Part shown: in pieces, positions 1 through 6,300 of the stretch
How positions within the stretch are numbered: the first letter of the stretch is position 1
Layout: each line of letters opens with the position of its first letter
NCBI GenBank assembly: GCA_964367815.1
Contig: CAYIYR010000002.1
Span: 13,903 to 77,902 of the forward strand
DNA from: an uncultured Eubacteriales bacterium
GTDB lineage: Bacteria; Bacillota_I; Bacilli_A; RFN20; UBA1709
Reading direction: 5' to 3'
DNA length: 64,000 nt
Position numbers and translations under genes: made by a program
The notes under the pieces: generated by a model
Told to the model about the DNA's origin: nothing
What the model saw: only the letters and a program-made list of their open reading frames with translations
Databases searched by the model: none

Positions 1-722
1 CTCCAACAAATTATCAAACTTTAGAGTGGGTTTTTAACAACGTAAACAAAAACTATACTCGAGATACCGATATTAATTTAAATGAAGAAGCTTTTGCTAG
101 AGCAAAGGCCAAGAACAAGTTTGCATTTACGCTCCAAAGGACAACTCTTTGGATTGATCAAGGTCTATATATGTATTCGACTGATGGAACGGTGAATTCA
201 GGCTATTTTACTAACAGCACAGAAGCCAACAAAATGTACCATTATAATATCAATGGTGGTATTACAAACATTGCTGATTCCAGCAAAGTTCAAAATGTTG
301 CTTTCTCGTCTGATATTGTTGGGGGAATGAACGCTTTCTTTATTGATATGTGTAAATTCCACGATAATGCCAGTTCTTATTCGGCTTTATTTACAAATAC
401 AGCTAATAATACTTGGGAATCTACTGATTTAGATATGATTAATTATTTTTTAGCGTTTTGTGCGTCGTGCTATACCAACACCGAAGCTTGGGATGTTGAT
501 GGAAATGGTAGTATTGGGGAAAATGAAGTATTAGAATTCTCAAAAGTGATAGTTACTATTCCTGATAATTCCGGAAATTTTCTCTTCAAGTTATATGTTA
601 CTGAAGCCTGCAAGAGTGTTTTAGATAGTGAAAATATTAATGATTGTTTGTTTGCTTCTGCAAGTGTTCATAATATTGGCTCGACGGCAATTACTGCTCT
701 TTCAGTGGAAATGGGTAAATAG
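1..722 (+). CDS. C-terminal fragment of a larger secreted or surface protein whose 5' end lies outside the window. It carries an EF-hand/dockerin-like Ca-binding motif DVDGNGSIGENE.
   Basis: The frame containing the 171 ATG is open from position 3 with no upstream stop, so the tracked ORF is only the tail. The sequence is Asn/Thr/Ser-rich. A DxDxDG motif is followed by a hairpin/T-run terminator at 744-768. Confidence 0.45.
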   Translation, partial: PTNYQTLEWVFNNVNKNYTRDTDINLNEEAFARAKAKNKFAFTLQRTTLWIDQGLYMYSTDGTVNSGYFTNSTEANKMYHYNINGGITNIADSSKVQNVAFSSDIVGGMNAFFIDMCKFHDNASSYSALFTNTANNTWESTDLDMINYFLAFCASCYTNTEAWDVDGNGSIGENEVLEFSKVIVTIPDNSGNFLFKLYVTEACKSVLDSENINDCLFASASVHNIGSTAITALSVEMGK

Positions 723-743
723 AAAAGGGTTAAGATATTCTTA

Positions 744-768
744 GCAAGGCTTTGGCCTTGCTTTTTTG
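744..768 (+). terminator. Rho-independent terminator
   Basis: Hairpin GCAAGGC-tttg-GCCTTGC followed by TTTTTT. Confidence 0.7.
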
Positions 769-843
769 GTAGAAATCATACAAGAAAATGCAATCTGTGA
801 CTAAACGAATATTCTTTTTTTCTCTTGTATATGGTATCATTAA

Positions 844-2382
844 TTGATAGGAAGTGAGCCTGTGAAAGAACCGATTTTCCCGAAGCTGATGAAAAACTGG
901 CTGGCGAAGTTGAAAGAGTCTTTTTTTTCTATTCTACCTATCTTTTTAATCGTTTTATTATTACATTTCACTGGTCTTGCGCGGCTTAGCAATGATACTT
1001 TTGTTGATTTTCTAATTGCCTCGGCAATACTAGTTGTCGGTATGACAGCGTTTAGTATCGGAACTGATGCTTCAATTATGCCAATGGGCAATAATATTGC
1101 CACTAAATTAATTGGCAAAAGTAAAGCATATCTTTTAATTTTTGTCTGTTTGATTTTGGGAATTTTGATTTCTATCGCTGAGCCAGATCTTAGTGTTTTA
1201 GCTACTTTGGTGGAGAAAGCTATTCCGTACAACACAACATTTTTGACTATTTCAATTGGTGTTGGAATCTTTCTTGCTTTCTCAGTTTTAAGAGTGTTTT
1301 TCAAGATAAAACTAAAGTATTTAATTCTTTTATTGTATGCCTTGGTTTTTATTCTTGCCTCAATATGTGACGTATCTTTCATACCAGTCGCCTTTGATTC
1401 TGGTGGTGTCACTACTGGCCCTGTCACGGTCCCATTCATTATGGCCTTAGGTGTTGGTATCGCAACGATTACCAATCACCATAGTGAAGCCAAAGGAAAT
1501 GAAAACAACTTTGGTATGGTCGCTTTGTGTTCTGTTGGTCCAATCATGGCGATGTTAGTTTTGGGTATTATCAATGGTAATGCTGATATTGGCAGTCACG
1601 CCGTAACTACCCATGATTATTTACCTTTGTTATTACAATACATGAAGAGTGTTGCTTTTGCTTTAATCCCGATAATAGTGATATTTTTACTACTTCAATT
1701 TTCTTATCTAAAGTTAAGCAAAGCAAAGTTAAGATCTATTTTGGTGGGAGTAGTTAATAGTTATATTGGCCTAGTTTTATTTTTGTCAGCCGCTGAATTT
1801 GGCTTTTTGAAAGCTGGCAATGAAATCGGAATTCTTTTGGGTCAATCAGCTAGTACTGGTGCAATAGGTAAAACGGTAGTAATCGTTGTTGGTTTTGCCT
1901 TAGGTTTCTTAGCTGTTTTGGCTGAGCCAGCGGTTCATGTGTTAAATAAATTGATCAGTGAAACCAGTGGTGGAGTTATTAGTAAAAGAGCGATGCTATT
2001 GAGTTTAGCAATTGGCGTTGGTCTTGCAGTGGGCCTCTGTATGGTAAGAATATTATTTGATATTCCTTTCTTAATAATTGCTGGTATTGGCTATAGTATT
2101 GCTCTGATTCTTGCAGTCATTGTTGATGATGTCTATGTGGGAATTGCGTTTGATTCCGGTGGTGTTGCCAGCGGACCGTTATCTTCCTCATTTATTCTTC
2201 CTCTGGCACTAGGAGTCTGCAGTGCTCTAGGCAAAGATGTTTTAAAAAGTGGATTTGGTGTAGTCGCCATGATTGCCTTAACACCATTAATCACAATTCA
2301 AATTCTCGGCTTGATTGTTAAAATTCAGAATCACCAGATGGTTCCAAATTTTGTTGAAGATACAAAGATTATTCAATTTTAG
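844..2382 (+). CDS. DUF1538-family polytopic membrane protein with an internal duplication.
   Basis: 512 aa and very hydrophobic. The motif FDSGGVTTGPVTVPFIMALGVG repeats as FDSGGVASGPLSSSFILPLALGV, matching the two-repeat DUF1538 architecture. An alternative GTG start at 862 lies behind AGGAAGTGAG. Confidence 0.65.
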   Translation: MIGSEPVKEPIFPKLMKNWLAKLKESFFSILPIFLIVLLLHFTGLARLSNDTFVDFLIASAILVVGMTAFSIGTDASIMPMGNNIATKLIGKSKAYLLIFVCLILGILISIAEPDLSVLATLVEKAIPYNTTFLTISIGVGIFLAFSVLRVFFKIKLKYLILLLYALVFILASICDVSFIPVAFDSGGVTTGPVTVPFIMALGVGIATITNHHSEAKGNENNFGMVALCSVGPIMAMLVLGIINGNADIGSHAVTTHDYLPLLLQYMKSVAFALIPIIVIFLLLQFSYLKLSKAKLRSILVGVVNSYIGLVLFLSAAEFGFLKAGNEIGILLGQSASTGAIGKTVVIVVGFALGFLAVLAEPAVHVLNKLISETSGGVISKRAMLLSLAIGVGLAVGLCMVRILFDIPFLIIAGIGYSIALILAVIVDDVYVGIAFDSGGVASGPLSSSFILPLALGVCSALGKDVLKSGFGVVAMIALTPLITIQILGLIVKIQNHQMVPNFVEDTKIIQF

Positions 2383-2393
2383 GGAGGGCGGAT

Positions 2394-2741
2394 ATGAAAA
2401 AATTAAAAACAGTTTATGTAATCTGTAATCCTGATAAAGTCTTAATGGTTGAGAAAACATTGAAATCGCATCATTGTAATTATCTCTATTCTTATCACAG
2501 CCGTGGAGGAGCAACTAATGATATAATTGATTTGTTAGGGTTGAGGTCTTCCAATCGAATGGTTATAATTGGAGTAATTGCTGCCAATGAAGAAGCACGT
2601 TTATTGAAGGTATTAGGTAAGAAATTACAGGTTGAACATCATGGTACCGGAATTGCCTTCACTATCCCATTAGATAGTCTATTAGGAACATACACTTATC
2701 GCTTTTTAGCGAATGAAATAGGAGGACAACAAAATGGCTGA
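2394..2741 (+). CDS. PII-like (GlnB-fold) small signal-transduction protein, copy 1
   Basis: 115 aa with a strong SD (GGGAGGG). The context is the DUF1538-associated PII-like family. This copy is diverged from copy 2. Confidence 0.5.
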   Translation: MKKLKTVYVICNPDKVLMVEKTLKSHHCNYLYSYHSRGGATNDIIDLLGLRSSNRMVIIGVIAANEEARLLKVLGKKLQVEHHGTGIAFTIPLDSLLGTYTYRFLANEIGGQQNG

Positions 2742-3051
2742 TGCAAAAAAAGAATATGAATTAATAACCGTAATTGTAAATGTTGATTTTGCAGAGATTG
2801 CAATTGAGGCCTCCCAACAAGCTGGAGCACGCGGAGCAACAATTATAAATGCCCATGGCAGTGGATCAAAGGAAGCCGGTCTGCTAATGGGACTAAAAGT
2901 CACACCAGAAAAAGATGTGGTATTAATTGTTGTTGAAAGCAGCATGCGCGATGCGGTTATGACTGCCATCGGTGAGAAAGTCGGATTGAGTATGCCGGGG
3001 CAAGGAATTATTTTCTCTCAGAAGATTGATTCAGCAATCGGTTTAGCATAA
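2734..3051 (+). CDS. PII-like (GlnB-fold) small signal-transduction protein, copy 2
   Basis: 105 aa with a beta-alpha-beta layout (ELITVIVNVDFAEIAIEASQQAGARGATIINAHGSG...VVLIVVESSMRDAV) reminiscent of PII/GlnB. It overlaps the upstream gene by 8 nt, indicating translational coupling. Confidence 0.6.
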   Translation: MADAKKEYELITVIVNVDFAEIAIEASQQAGARGATIINAHGSGSKEAGLLMGLKVTPEKDVVLIVVESSMRDAVMTAIGEKVGLSMPGQGIIFSQKIDSAIGLA

Positions 3052-3064
3052 GGAGGAATATTCA

Positions 3065-3487
3065 ATGAAGAAAGAGTTTAAAACACAAGAATATAAGACT
3101 ATTGTTCAACACAAGATTGAGCAATCAGATTACACTTTTGCTATCAGGGTTTTACATTTTGATAAAAAGAAGTTAAGCATCAAAAAAGTACCTTACTTAC
3201 CAGCGATAATTGAAATTGACTTTAATCCATTAAAGGAAAATACCAGGATGAGTTTTACGGTATCAGCGACTTCAGCGACTGCTGCTACAAAGAGAATTCT
3301 TTTTAGTCCTGCTAAGTTTACTAGTTCCTTTCCTTTGAAACAACGCTACCTATTAAGAGTGCCAATTGTTGAAGATGAACCAATTCAAAGAATCGTTTTC
3401 CGAATCGAAGCTTATAAGAATGTTTTCTCAAAAGAAGGAAAACAAGTTGAGTTTCAACATAAGCTAGATGTCACGCAAATGCTATAA
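3065..3487 (+). CDS. Hypothetical protein, the last gene of the DUF1538/PII operon.
   Basis: 140 aa behind the SD AAGGAGG. No recognisable family. A terminator follows. Confidence 0.45.
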   Translation: MKKEFKTQEYKTIVQHKIEQSDYTFAIRVLHFDKKKLSIKKVPYLPAIIEIDFNPLKENTRMSFTVSATSATAATKRILFSPAKFTSSFPLKQRYLLRVPIVEDEPIQRIVFRIEAYKNVFSKEGKQVEFQHKLDVTQML

Positions 3488-3515
3488 CTTGCGCAGTAAT
3501 TTTTTCTCTTAAAAA

Positions 3516-3544
3516 CGCCATTTAAACACAATGGTGTTTTTTTG
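3516..3544 (+). terminator. Rho-independent terminator
   Basis: Stem CGCCATT/AATGGTG followed by TTTTTTT. Confidence 0.7.
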
Positions 3545-3624
3545 TTAGCGTTTACTTAAATTTTTCCTTGAATTAAGTTCATAGATTTGGTATAACTCAA
3601 TTGTGATTTTGGAGGTGCTGCATA

Positions 3625-5256
3625 ATGAAAGACACAAAGTTTATTTTTATTACGGGTGGAGTTGTATCTAGTTTAGGAAAAGGAATAACATCTTCCTGTA
3701 TTGGACGATTACTTAAGGAACGTGGCTTGAAAATCTTTATGCAGAAATTTGATCCATATCTTAACTATGATCCCGGGACAATGTCTCCCTATCAACATGG
3801 CGAGGTTTTTGTCACTTGTGATGGAGCGGAAACCGATTTGGATTTAGGTCACTATGAGAGATTTACTAATGAGTTAGTAACTAAAGATTCTAATGTTACT
3901 ACGGGAAAAATCTACTCAAGTGTTATCGATAAAGAACGCAAAGGTCATTATAATGGTGGGACTGTTCAAGTCATTCCTCATATTACTAATGAAATAAAAG
4001 GTTATCTTCATAGAGCGAAAGCAACTGGAGCAGATGTTGTCATCACCGAAATTGGTGGGACAGTAGGCGATATTGAATCACAACCATTTTTGGAAGCTAT
4101 TAGACAAGCTAGAAGAGAGTTTGGCTTTCATAATACTTTTTATGTTCATGTTACTTTAGTACCATATCTTCATAGTGCTCATGAGTTAAAGACAAAACCG
4201 ACCCAACATAGCGTTAAAGAGATGAAGGGATTAGGAATTCAACCCGATATGATTGTTCTGAGAACGGAAATTCCCGTACCAGAAGAGCATAAACAAAAAA
4301 TCGCCTTATTCTGTGATGTTGATGCCAAAGCAGTCATTGAAGCAAGAGACATGGGAATCGTTTATGATTTGGTTAATGAGTTTCAAAGACAAGGAGTCGA
4401 TGATTTCATTTGCAACCATTTTGAGTTAGAAACACCAGCAGCAGACCTTACCGATTGGAATAAAATGATTAATTGGATTAAGCATGCGAAAGGCAAAGTT
4501 ACTATTGGTTTAATTGGCAAATATATTTCGCTTAAAGATGCCTATATTTCAGTAAATGAAAGTTTAGCCCATGCTGGTTTCTTCTATGGTAAGAAAGTCG
4601 AGATTGTTGGGATAGAGTCAGAAACAATTACGGAAGCCACAGCGGATGAACTATTGGGAAATCTTGATGGTATTTTAGTTCCTGGCGGTTTTGGTGTGCG
4701 GGGCATTGCGGGAAAGATCATTGCATCACAATATGCCCGAGAGCATAAGATTCCTTATTTTGGCATCTGCTTAGGCATGCAAGTAGCCTTGATTGATATT
4801 GCTCGTAATGTTGCTCATCTTGAAGATGCTGATTCCACGGAGTTTAATGCCCAAACACCTTATAAGATTATTGATTTGTTGCCCGACCAATTTACAGGTA
4901 TAAATATTGGTGGAACCTTAAGGTTAGGAAACTATGAATGTCGAATTGATCCGAGTTCAAAGCCGTTTTCTTATTATAAGAATAGAGAGTCGGTTCAAGA
5001 AAGACATCGCCACCGGTATGAATTTAATAATGAATACAAGGAGCTTCTTCACCAAAATGGCGTGAAATTTATCGGTATTAATCCCCAAGCCAATCTAGTT
5101 GAAATGATTGAACTAGAGGGACATCCTTGGTATGTAGCGTGCCAATTCCATCCTGAATTTAGATCTAGACCTAATCATCCCCATCCTTTATTTAAGGGAT
5201 TTATTGATGCGGCGATTAAATATAAGCAAGAAAAAAACAAGAAGGCTTCAGTTTAA
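3625..5256 (+). CDS. pyrG: CTP synthase
   Basis: The N-terminus FITGGVVSSLGKGITSSCIGRLLKERGLKIFMQKFDPYLNYDPGTMSPYQHGEVFVTCDGAETDLDLGHYERF is diagnostic. A C-terminal glutamine amidotransferase domain is present. Confidence 0.95.
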   Translation: MKDTKFIFITGGVVSSLGKGITSSCIGRLLKERGLKIFMQKFDPYLNYDPGTMSPYQHGEVFVTCDGAETDLDLGHYERFTNELVTKDSNVTTGKIYSSVIDKERKGHYNGGTVQVIPHITNEIKGYLHRAKATGADVVITEIGGTVGDIESQPFLEAIRQARREFGFHNTFYVHVTLVPYLHSAHELKTKPTQHSVKEMKGLGIQPDMIVLRTEIPVPEEHKQKIALFCDVDAKAVIEARDMGIVYDLVNEFQRQGVDDFICNHFELETPAADLTDWNKMINWIKHAKGKVTIGLIGKYISLKDAYISVNESLAHAGFFYGKKVEIVGIESETITEATADELLGNLDGILVPGGFGVRGIAGKIIASQYAREHKIPYFGICLGMQVALIDIARNVAHLEDADSTEFNAQTPYKIIDLLPDQFTGINIGGTLRLGNYECRIDPSSKPFSYYKNRESVQERHRHRYEFNNEYKELLHQNGVKFIGINPQANLVEMIELEGHPWYVACQFHPEFRSRPNHPHPLFKGFIDAAIKYKQEKNKKASV

Positions 5257-5270
5257 CTGAAGCTTTTTTG
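5245..5270 (+). terminator. Rho-independent terminator overlapping the pyrG stop codon
   Basis: GCTTCAG-tttaa-CTGAAGC followed by TTTTTT. Confidence 0.75.
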
Positions 5271-5326
5271 ATGAATAATAGTGAAAATAGTATATAATAT
5301 AATCATATCATTAGGAGGAAATCACA

Positions 5327-5668
5327 ATGGATAAGAAACACTTATATGTTTTATGGACAAATGCTGATCCTGTTACTGCGAAGTTAATGGTTTTTATGTA
5401 TACAATTAATTCTATGAAACGGGGATGGTGGGAGAAAGTTACTCTAGTCATCTGGGGCGCCCCGACTAAATTAGTTGCCACCAATGAAGAAATGCAAGCG
5501 AAGATTAAAGAAGCTCAAGAAGCTGGTGTGGAAGTTGAAGCCTGTATCGCTTGTGCGCGAGAACTTGGTGTTATCGAGGATTTAGAAAATCTCGGCATCA
5601 AGGTTGTCTCCTGGGGACCATTATTGACAAATGTGCTCAAGGAAGATGAAACATTGATTACAATTTAA
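5327..5668 (+). CDS. DsrE/DsrF(YchN)-like small protein
   Basis: 113 aa with a CIAC cysteine pair. The overall pattern LYVLWTNADP...MVFMY...GWW..V.LVIWG resembles the DsrE family. Confidence 0.5.
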   Translation: MDKKHLYVLWTNADPVTAKLMVFMYTINSMKRGWWEKVTLVIWGAPTKLVATNEEMQAKIKEAQEAGVEVEACIACARELGVIEDLENLGIKVVSWGPLLTNVLKEDETLITI

Positions 5669-5708
5669 TTAACTCTGCTGGAAAGTTAATATGTCTATTG
5701 TTGAAATT

Positions 5709-5737
5709 GATAGCCAAATAGATTATAATTAAACCGC
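5709..5737 (+). promoter_or_regulatory. Sigma-A-type promoter for apt
   Basis: TTGAAA, a 17-nt spacer, then TATAAT. Confidence 0.55.
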
Positions 5738-5775
5738 TTTTCTGATTGAAATAGCGATAAAGTGAGGCTTTATTT

Positions 5776-6300
5776 ATGAAAAAAGTTGAAGATTATATTG
5801 TTACCATACCAAATTTCCCTGAACCAGGGATTATGTTTAGAGATGTTACTTCGGTTCTTCAAGATGCCGATGGTTTAAAGTTAGCTATTGATGAAATGGA
5901 CAATCTATTAAAGGATGTCGATTGTGATGTCATTGCGGGAACTGAATCTAGAGGTTTTATTTTTGGTATGCCAATCGCTTATAATCTTCATAAGCCTTTT
6001 GTTTTGATTCGGAAGAAAGGTAAGTTGCCAAGAGAAACTGTATCTATGACTTATGATTTAGAATACGGTAAAGCAACTATCGAGATGCATAAAAGTGCGA
6101 TTATTCCTGGTCAAAAGGTTGTTGTGGTTGATGATCTAATCGCAACTGGTGGTACACTAGAAGCCTGTGTTAAATTGATTGAAAGACTAGGCGGAGTTGT
6201 CGTAAAGATTATTGTATTAATGGAACTTAAGGGGCTTAATGGTCGTGATAAATTACAAGGTTATGATGTCGCTTCTGTAGTCTCGTATGACGGAAAATAA
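5776..6300 (+). CDS. apt: Adenine phosphoribosyltransferase
   Basis: The PRTase motif VVVVDDLIATGGT and Apt-typical N-terminal sequence. Confidence 0.93.
   Translation: MKKVEDYIVTIPNFPEPGIMFRDVTSVLQDADGLKLAIDEMDNLLKDVDCDVIAGTESRGFIFGMPIAYNLHKPFVLIRKKGKLPRETVSMTYDLEYGKATIEMHKSAIIPGQKVVVVDDLIATGGTLEACVKLIERLGGVVVKIIVLMELKGLNGRDKLQGYDVASVVSYDGK

Follow-up and report, generated by a model that had tools for sequence, protein, structure and literature searches.

In a 64-kb stretch of DNA from an uncultured Eubacteriales bacterium (contig CAYIYR010000002.1; the whole stretch is referred to here as the window), a gene for a membrane protein of the DUF1538 family was found to be followed directly by the genes of two small PII-like proteins, which we call PA and PB, and then by a gene for a 140-amino-acid (aa) protein in front of pyrG. 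The transporter-like DUF1538 protein and its PII-like neighbours almost certainly constitute a conserved module of two or three genes. The pairing of DUF1538 with PII-like sequence was observed in all 147 related loci that have room downstream, which is far beyond chance. By analogy with GlnK-AmtB and SbtB-SbtA, we propose with moderate confidence that the T-loops of the PII-like proteins dock on the cytoplasmic side of the membrane protein, and that transport is gated in this way in response to a small ligand. Exchange of monovalent cations for H+ is tentatively suggested as the activity of the DUF1538 protein.

Association of DUF1538 with PII-like genes

Related loci were sampled as the best 80 matches of each of two scans, one of genomes and one of metagenomes. 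The genome scan gave 80 loci with fused DUF1538 proteins (41-47% identical) from Clostridia, Bacilli and one spirochaete, together with two further contexts. The metagenome scan was seeded with single DUF1538 repeats, including split alphaproteobacterial subunits, and its loci were counted where at least 400 nucleotides (nt) lay downstream of DUF1538. The PII-like domains in these loci are of two types, A and B, represented in the window by PA and PB respectively. Among genome loci with room downstream, an A domain and then a B domain were observed directly after DUF1538 in 79 of 79, and the loci without them end at a contig edge. The two domains form one tandem protein of about 225-235 aa in 50 loci and are encoded by two genes, as in the window, in 29. 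A PII-like gene was likewise observed in 68 of 68 metagenome loci. The preliminary description had proposed the pairing from the letters of this one locus; it was found to hold throughout both samples, with no DUF1538 gene lacking a PII-like partner where enough DNA lay downstream.

The type of PII-like gene changes with the form of DUF1538. If D denotes one DUF1538 repeat, DD is followed by a fused AB protein in 34 metagenome loci and by A and B as two genes in two. Where the repeats are separate (D, D), a single B gene follows in 19 loci, plus 4 with a truncated D, two B genes in 4, a fused BB protein in 3 and a fused AB protein in 1, and in the last locus (L098) D is followed by a D fused in frame to B. 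A fused DUF1538 is accompanied by A and B in every sampled case, as two genes in 31 loci and as a tandem protein in 84, and split pairs are mostly accompanied by a single B-type gene. The single PII protein of alphaproteobacterial plasmids is also of the B type. The separate A and B genes of the window, with their 8-nt overlap, are a minority form among the relatives. In most of them A and B were observed as one tandem polypeptide, as at L001:5060-5764, and the closest genome (DUF1538 60% identical) also has this form.

In L098 (3956-5026) the second DUF1538 subunit continues in frame into a B-type PII domain to give a protein of 357 aa, with the junction ...RTKKRRKEEKT-MPEKSLIVSIV.... This is either a natural fusion or the product of a lost stop codon. 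It would place the PII domain on the cytoplasmic side and suggests contact with DUF1538. Two further candidates for such fusions, P0006 (663 aa) and P0008 (617 aa), were rejected as assembly duplications, their internal repeats of about 100-170 residues being exact or near-exact.

The adjacency is already visible in RefSeq product names, where 'P-II family nitrogen regulator' was found beside 'DUF1538 domain-containing protein' in five of five annotated plasmid or chromid loci; adjacency records were obtained for Chelativorans, Methylocystis, Paraclostridium, Peptoclostridium and Vescimonas. Clustering of neighbouring open reading frames (ORFs) over about 160 loci gave no conserved third gene or substrate clue, and the module is self-contained. 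The commonest neighbours in these loci were generic and of low frequency (ABC ATPase 16, MatE 9, P-type cation ATPase 8 and response regulator 7).

The membrane protein and the two PII-like proteins

The DUF1538 protein of the window matches Pfam PF07556 with 384.4 bits (cut-off 22.6) in two stretches that cover both halves. The halves are 30% identical (E 9e-26) and the internal duplication is therefore real, as the preliminary description had it, with 506 aa as the likelier length. Close DUF1538 homologues scored in this work number more than 8,000, which is a lower bound. An AlphaFold2 model built on a 93-sequence alignment (predicted local distance difference test, pLDDT, 90.2; predicted template-modelling score, pTM, 0.90) is all-helical with two sets of about ten helices. 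Each repeat contains an AEP(D/A) and a (F/Y)D(S/A)GGVxxGP motif. The columns E107-P108-D109, D179...P187, E355-P356 and D431...G438 are invariant in the 93 sequences and stay so once the split proteobacterial subunits are added. In the model, the AEPD/AEPA and FDSGGVxxGP motifs map to breaks between short helices in each repeat. Buried carboxylates at helix breaks are a common geometry at the ion sites of secondary transporters. Foldseek with the model gave no match at E <= 0.001 (TM <= 0.19) and a PDB sequence search with the protein was empty, so that the fold, as predicted, is without a solved-structure counterpart. Lysines are abundant at the N-terminus, and a PII domain can follow the C-terminus in the same chain; therefore, both ends are probably cytoplasmic and the two repeats would be parallel.

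UmpAB of Halomonas zhaodongensis, the sole experimentally studied DUF1538 member, consists of separate DUF1538 subunits that conferred Na+(Li+,K+)/H+ antiport on E. coli KNabc (PMC5484666). UmpA and UmpB were needed together, since neither alone gave antiport, and no PII gene is among the ORFs listed for the clone (PMC5484666). Against NCBIfam NF041627/NF041628, the halves of the window protein score 142.6 bits for UmpA (equivalog cut-off 490) and 111.3 bits for UmpB (500), both far below the cut-off, and by these scores it is classed as a relative of UmpAB and not as its equivalent. The preliminary description had named no substrate. This stands for the window protein itself but not for the family, of which UmpAB is reported to be a Na+(Li+,K+)/H+ antiporter (PMC5484666).

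Both small proteins were found to have the PII ferredoxin-like fold, PA being a strongly diverged paralogue of PB. PB matches Pfam P-II (PF00543) with 30.4 bits (cut-off 25), whereas PA alone has no match in Pfam, NCBIfam or PDB sequences, and a single-sequence word-index search with PA returned only PA itself. The A and B families were built from the genes 3' of DUF1538 in the related loci together with iterated profiles, giving alignments of 80 (A2) and 78 (A3) sequences respectively. Comparison of the two families with hhalign gave a full-length match (98.9% probability, E 3.4e-17). Pfam P-II is matched by 74 of the 78 B-type homologues compared with 13 of the 80 A-type ones, and among solved structures the B-family profile picks up PII proteins, with 9p1x_H in first place (1.7e-5), followed by GlnB and GlnK. 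The AlphaFold2 model of PA, which used a 63-sequence alignment (pLDDT 87.5), has two beta-alpha-beta units with a loop and a short helix between beta2 and beta3 (E4-11, H13-25, E29-35, loop, E56-63, H64-78, E86-93). Foldseek with this model gave 120 matches at E <= 0.001, and the leaders belong exclusively to the PII superfamily (GlnK1, C. glutamicum GlnK, Chlamydomonas PII, CPII, SbtB and PstA). The shared fold therefore rests on Pfam and profile homology for PB, on the family-level match and on the model and its structural matches for PA. Two paralogous PII-like proteins had been proposed from the letters of the locus, and both were recovered, PB directly by its Pfam hidden Markov model and PA, which has no Pfam match of its own, by way of profile comparison and structure.

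In public data the A-type proteins are mostly labelled 'hypothetical' with no Pfam domain, and one A-type homologue weakly matches DUF2179. Among solved structures, chain H of PDB entry 9p1x was matched best in sequence by the A profile as well as by the B profile; it is a 105-aa 'P-II family nitrogen regulatory protein' that makes up 12 chains of the entry, with a short T-loop like that of the A and B families. One A-type protein (P0142), from a 512-nt contig labelled Cutibacterium acnes, is taxonomically out of place among the Clostridia matches and is possibly a contamination.

PB was aligned to GlnB-type sequences to map the canonical residues. It keeps the glycine-rich cleft, with G34-x-T36 in beta2, G42-x-G44 at the base of the T-loop and G89-x-G91 in the B-loop. 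The equivalent of Lys58 hardly varies within the families, being K60 for B and K55 for A, and Arg occupies this position in PA. The equivalent of Lys90 is replaced by Ile in both families, and Arg38, Gln39, the T-loop tyrosine and the C-terminal arginines (Arg101 and Arg103) are lost. The B-loop reads S-M-P-G-Q-G-I-I-F in PB and H-H-G-T-G-I-A-F in PA, with the family consensus GxGI(x)F, and departs from the PROSITE signature of canonical proteins, T-x3-G-[DY]-G-[KR]-[IV]-[FW], which includes the ATP-binding Lys90. The T-loop has about 17 residues from GxG to the conserved Lys, some 4 fewer than in canonical proteins (about 20). Its consensus is GTAxSExLDxLGL in the A family and GTGxxxAExFFGI in the B family. 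Canonical loops have Arg38/Gln39 and a modifiable Tyr51/Ser49, whereas here R-Q is missing, no Tyr stands at the corresponding position, and there is a family-specific hydrophobic motif, L-D-x-L-G-L (A) or F-F-G-I (B). The T-loop and the B-loop were observed to be the most conserved parts of both families alike. Judged from these residues, PA and PB are not canonical PII (GlnB/GlnK) proteins, and they appear to have kept a ligand cleft of altered specificity together with a conserved docking loop. Because the residues that bind phosphate and 2-oxoglutarate are lost, the effector is probably not the canonical pair of MgATP and 2-oxoglutarate.

Layout of the locus and the 140-aa gene

According to the ORF list of the window, four ORFs on the plus strand fill positions 844-3487, and a check of the ORFs agrees with the placement of all four in the preliminary description (Table 1). 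The DUF1538 ORF opens with TTG at 844, which would give 512 aa. The database copy P0001, a 100% match, has 506 aa from the GTG at 862, and this GTG is preceded by GGAAGTGAG, a Shine-Dalgarno-like site; 862 is therefore the likelier start. The start of PA lies 11 nt past the DUF1538 stop with GGGAGG in front. PB is preceded by AGGAGG and overlaps PA by 8 nt (ATGGCTGA), as had been noted earlier. The 140-aa ORF starts 13 nt past PB with AAGGAGG in front.

Table 1. Features of the DUF1538 locus and its borders (window coordinates)
Feature	Position	Strand	Basis or remark
Terminator hairpin of the preceding gene	743..762	+	8-pair stem with 5 G-C pairs, then T-run; 5' border of the unit
Fused double-DUF1538 membrane protein, 506 aa	862..2382	+	Pfam PF07556, two stretches
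DUF1538 N repeat	about 901-1572	+	
DUF1538 C repeat	about 1633-2316	+	
PA, diverged A-type PII-like protein, 115 aa	2394..2741	+	profile comparison, AlphaFold2 model
PB, B-type PII-like protein, 105 aa	2734..3051	+	Pfam P-II
140-aa protein of a very small, fast-evolving family	3065..3487	+	ORF; 4 full-length homologues
Intrinsic-terminator-like hairpin and U-run, end of unit	about 3511..3544	+	folding
pyrG	begins 3625	+	after promoter-like TTGAAT-17-TATAAC

The terminator that had been placed at 3516-3544 was recovered by folding as a hairpin of 12 pairs followed by a U-run (-14.5 kcal/mol, z = -2.5), and a consensus terminator scan did not pick it up. A promoter scan of 763-861 gave no convincing promoter, and an Rfam scan of 1-6000 for riboswitches, such as c-di-AMP or other leaders, gave no credible match. 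No second DUF1538 or PII-like gene was found within the window. Upstream of the module, a 183-aa ORF at 171-722 has no significant Pfam or NCBIfam match and ends at the strong terminator hairpin of 743-762. Long minus-strand ORFs at 840-1475, 2287-2514 and 2706-2969 face the DUF1538 and PII genes, and similar antisense ORFs cluster across 141 related loci; they were taken as shadow ORFs of conserved sense genes and not as genes.

The 140-aa gene was found to be a passenger that belongs with pyrG and not a conserved member of the module. Its protein has no match in Pfam, NCBIfam or PDB and no homologue in 84 related loci. An exhaustive HMMER search of 1.84 billion representative proteins gave four full-length homologues (138-142 aa, 34-46% identity); a further match, the 1516-aa repeat protein P0128, was dismissed as a low-complexity repeat match. 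All four homologues lie immediately upstream of pyrG, the gene for CTP synthase (L089:89-511, L090:112-534, L091:1263-1679 and L092:2137-2565). The preceding gene is a PB orthologue in one of the four (L089, ending ...GLSMPGQGIIFSQKIDSVIGIA), an unrelated gene in L090 and a DUF5677 gene in L091 and L092, where no DUF1538 or PII is found nearby. The family therefore travels with pyrG, with or without DUF1538. A role of the 140-aa protein as a working fourth subunit, in a four-gene system peculiar to this lineage, is very unlikely. Such a system would account for the shared strand, the 13-nt gap, the strong Shine-Dalgarno site, the absence of a terminator before 3511 and the order of PB and the 140-aa gene being kept in L089, the closest relative, but not for the absence of the gene from the 84 loci, for the four homologues next to pyrG, three of them behind a DUF5677 or unrelated gene without DUF1538 or PII, or for the much faster divergence of the protein relative to its neighbours (between the window and L089, 46% identity compared with 90% for pyrG and 91% for the C-terminus of PB). 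The preliminary description had put the ORF in the same operon. Co-transcription is indeed probable here, with the module simply sitting in front, but conserved membership is not observed. A link of the 140-aa protein to pyrG expression or CTP metabolism is conceivable.

Between pyrG and an adenine phosphoribosyltransferase gene, the window has a 113-aa DsrE/DsrF-like protein (5327-5668; Pfam 28.5 bits). A phosphoribosyltransferase gene directly follows pyrG in L091 and L092, so the DsrE/DsrF-like gene looks like an insertion in the lineage of the window.

Proposed gating and relation to known systems

From the observed gene structure, fold assignments, strict linkage and co-variation of fused or split DUF1538 with the A and B types, a mechanism can be proposed in which physical binding, gating, effector and substrate go a step further. 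The region 862-3051 would be a self-contained module of transporter and regulator. DUF1538 would act as a two-repeat, all-helical membrane transporter with invariant intramembrane carboxylates at helix breaks and, like UmpAB, may move monovalent cations against protons. PA and PB, which are joined as a tandem protein in most relatives, would be produced in fixed proportion through translational coupling and would assemble as a hetero-oligomer on the cytoplasmic face of the transporter. Their short conserved T-loops would then insert to open or plug the pathway, and a small-molecule effector in the inter-subunit cleft would control this step. Gating by the T-loops is considered likely because of the strict linkage, the translational coupling, the fusions, the co-variation of architectures, the conserved T-loops and the activity of UmpAB without PII. 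As UmpAB antiport was obtained from a clone without a listed PII gene, a regulatory rather than a catalytic role of the PII-like proteins fits. The close packing of the genes also counts for the module: DUF1538 and PA are 11 nt apart, PA and PB overlap by 8 nt, and a Shine-Dalgarno site is present at both junctions. The preliminary description had named two outcomes that would refute it, small proteins without a PII fold and DUF1538 homologues generally without linked PII-like genes; both were checked and neither was observed. Its analogy to SbtA-SbtB and AmtB-GlnK is reasonable given the PII fold and the strict linkage, gating itself being an inference.

PII proteins are trimers. The equimolar A:B pairs and the tandem fusions suggest that PA and PB do not form a simple homotrimer, and the assembly could consist of stacked or mixed hexamers or of a pseudo-dimer that matches the two DUF1538 repeats. 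The fullest version of the latter, in which the trimer rule is broken, each domain of an A/B pseudo-dimer, often a single chain, docks on one of the two parallel repeats and the effector is neither ATP nor 2-oxoglutarate, seems unlikely at present.

Several points weigh against gating as proposed here. The 147 loci come from the best 80 matches per scan and thus cover the nearer DUF1538 lineages and not the distant ones, and the DUF1538-PII fusion is known from one metagenomic contig only. The binding, transport and ligand steps are argued for this subfamily from sequence and analogy. The nucleotide-contacting Lys90, Arg38, Arg101 and Arg103 are absent, which makes ligand binding by PA and PB putative. 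An equimolar A:B pair or a tandem AB chain is a misfit for a simple trimer, and the assembly may differ from that of GlnK or SbtB. As for the transported ion, the assignment of UmpAB comes from E. coli KNabc complementation and vesicle assays in a single study, and the substrate of the window protein may differ, given its low scores for UmpA (143 bits, cut-off 490) and UmpB (111 bits, cut-off 500).

This last point opens the most plausible alternative, which we nevertheless consider rather improbable, namely that the same module carries another cargo (bicarbonate, ammonium, an organic acid or a divalent metal) and that the PII-like pair responds to a metabolite connected with it, in the way of SbtB and CPII with inorganic carbon. 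In its favour are the UmpA/UmpB scores, which fall well short of the equivalog thresholds, the control of carbon or nitrogen uptake by every transporter-linked PII-like protein that has been studied well, and the lack of a consistently cation-related neighbour in about 160 loci. However, Na+(Li+,K+)/H+ antiport is the one activity for which the family has experimental evidence, and cation or proton sites typically have such invariant carboxylates within the membrane, at breaks in helices. A weak hint of ion homeostasis comes from the surroundings of the module, with P-type cation ATPase genes in 8 and V-type ATPase genes in 4 of about 160 loci.

The PII-like proteins may instead be obligatory structural or catalytic subunits, for example a cytoplasmic ring, and not ligand-responsive regulators. 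The 100% linkage in the sampled loci, the fixed stoichiometry implied by fusions and overlaps and the loss of canonical effector-binding residues would all be expected in that case. We consider it quite improbable, as UmpAB alone gave antiport in E. coli from a clone without a listed PII gene and the conserved cleft, with GxT in beta2, the GxG motifs of the T-loop base and of the B-loop, and the residue equivalent to Lys58, suggests that a ligand pocket is retained. It is hardly to be expected that DUF1538 is a membrane sensor or receptor whose signal the PII-like pair relays to other cytoplasmic targets. Antiport activity has been published for UmpAB, neither an output domain nor a conserved downstream target gene was found, and the arrangement as two parallel repeats, with carboxylates that are buried and conserved, agrees with a transport pathway, although PII proteins typically have several targets and the predicted DUF1538 fold matches no known transporter. 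Regulation of a transporter by the PII-like pair is the reading that we prefer.

PII and PII-like proteins are textbook examples of small sensors that plug transporters such as AmtB and SbtA. In the openly searchable literature, with subscription-only reviews outside the search, neither a connection between DUF1538 and PII nor a description of the A-type paralogue was found, and a preprint on the SbtB/GlnK 'valve plug' does not mention DUF1538. The module is unusual in combining a membrane fold without solved precedent with a hetero or tandem PII regulator, and the gating of an ion transporter in this way is probably new to the literature. If so, DUF1538 would be a third, very common membrane partner for PII-like regulators, in a hetero-pair or tandem form that the trimer paradigm does not obviously accommodate. 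The pseudo-dimer, if true, would mean a new quaternary and regulatory logic, in very many gut and environmental anaerobes, for a signalling fold that is among the most widespread. Furthermore, the compact unit of two or three genes could be used to settle the cargo of DUF1538 and its controlling signal in gut Clostridia and related anaerobes.

As in AmtB-GlnK, a PII-fold gene lies immediately 3' of a membrane transport gene in the same orientation, and the logic of a T-loop plug would be expected. In contrast, DUF1538 is unrelated to AmtB and has no solved fold counterpart, two diverged paralogues are found where AmtB has a single homotrimeric GlnK, the T-loop lacks Tyr51 and is shorter by about 4 residues, and the equivalents of Arg38, Gln39 and Lys90 and the C-terminal arginines are absent. 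The SbtA-SbtB and DabAB-CPII systems also have non-canonical PII-like proteins dedicated to one adjacent transporter, and the structures most similar to the PA model include SbtB and CPII. Their membrane partners have no sequence relationship to DUF1538, however, and SbtB and CPII are single genes whereas A/B pairs or tandem fusions are found here. The C-terminal CGPxGC redox loop of many SbtB proteins is absent, PB ending in ...DSAIGLA and PA in ...EIGGQQNG. NifI1 and NifI2 are paired PII paralogues, encoded side by side, that form a hetero-oligomer and regulate nitrogenase. They resemble PA and PB as two different adjacent paralogues but have a soluble enzyme as target, in nif operons, with 2-oxoglutarate/ATP as effector, and we know of no tandem single-chain NifI1/NifI2 fusions. 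The c-di-AMP receptors PstA/DarA have a long B-loop and a short T-loop, in contrast to the PA model with its short B-loop (79-85) and long T-loop (36-55).

In the YitT/DUF2179 proteins, for example Borrelia BB0017, a PII-like domain is also coupled to a multi-pass membrane domain of unknown function, but that domain is the four-transmembrane YitT, to which the PII-like domain, with its truncated loops, is fused in every case (PMC6516651). BB0017 had been considered as a lead for DUF1538 and was rejected as a member of this other family (PMC6516651). UmpAB shares with the window protein the Pfam family DUF1538, two homologous halves that must act together and the conserved motifs (PMC5484666). 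UmpA and UmpB are separate subunits while the window has one fused 506-aa chain, and the paper mentions no PII partner (PMC5484666). The module belongs neither to the canonical GlnB/GlnK, SbtB and PstA/DarA groups nor to the UmpAB equivalog, and what it has in common with the GlnK and SbtB systems is a PII-like gene adjacent to and co-oriented with its membrane partner across lineages (79/79 genome loci, 68/68 metagenome loci and five RefSeq records).

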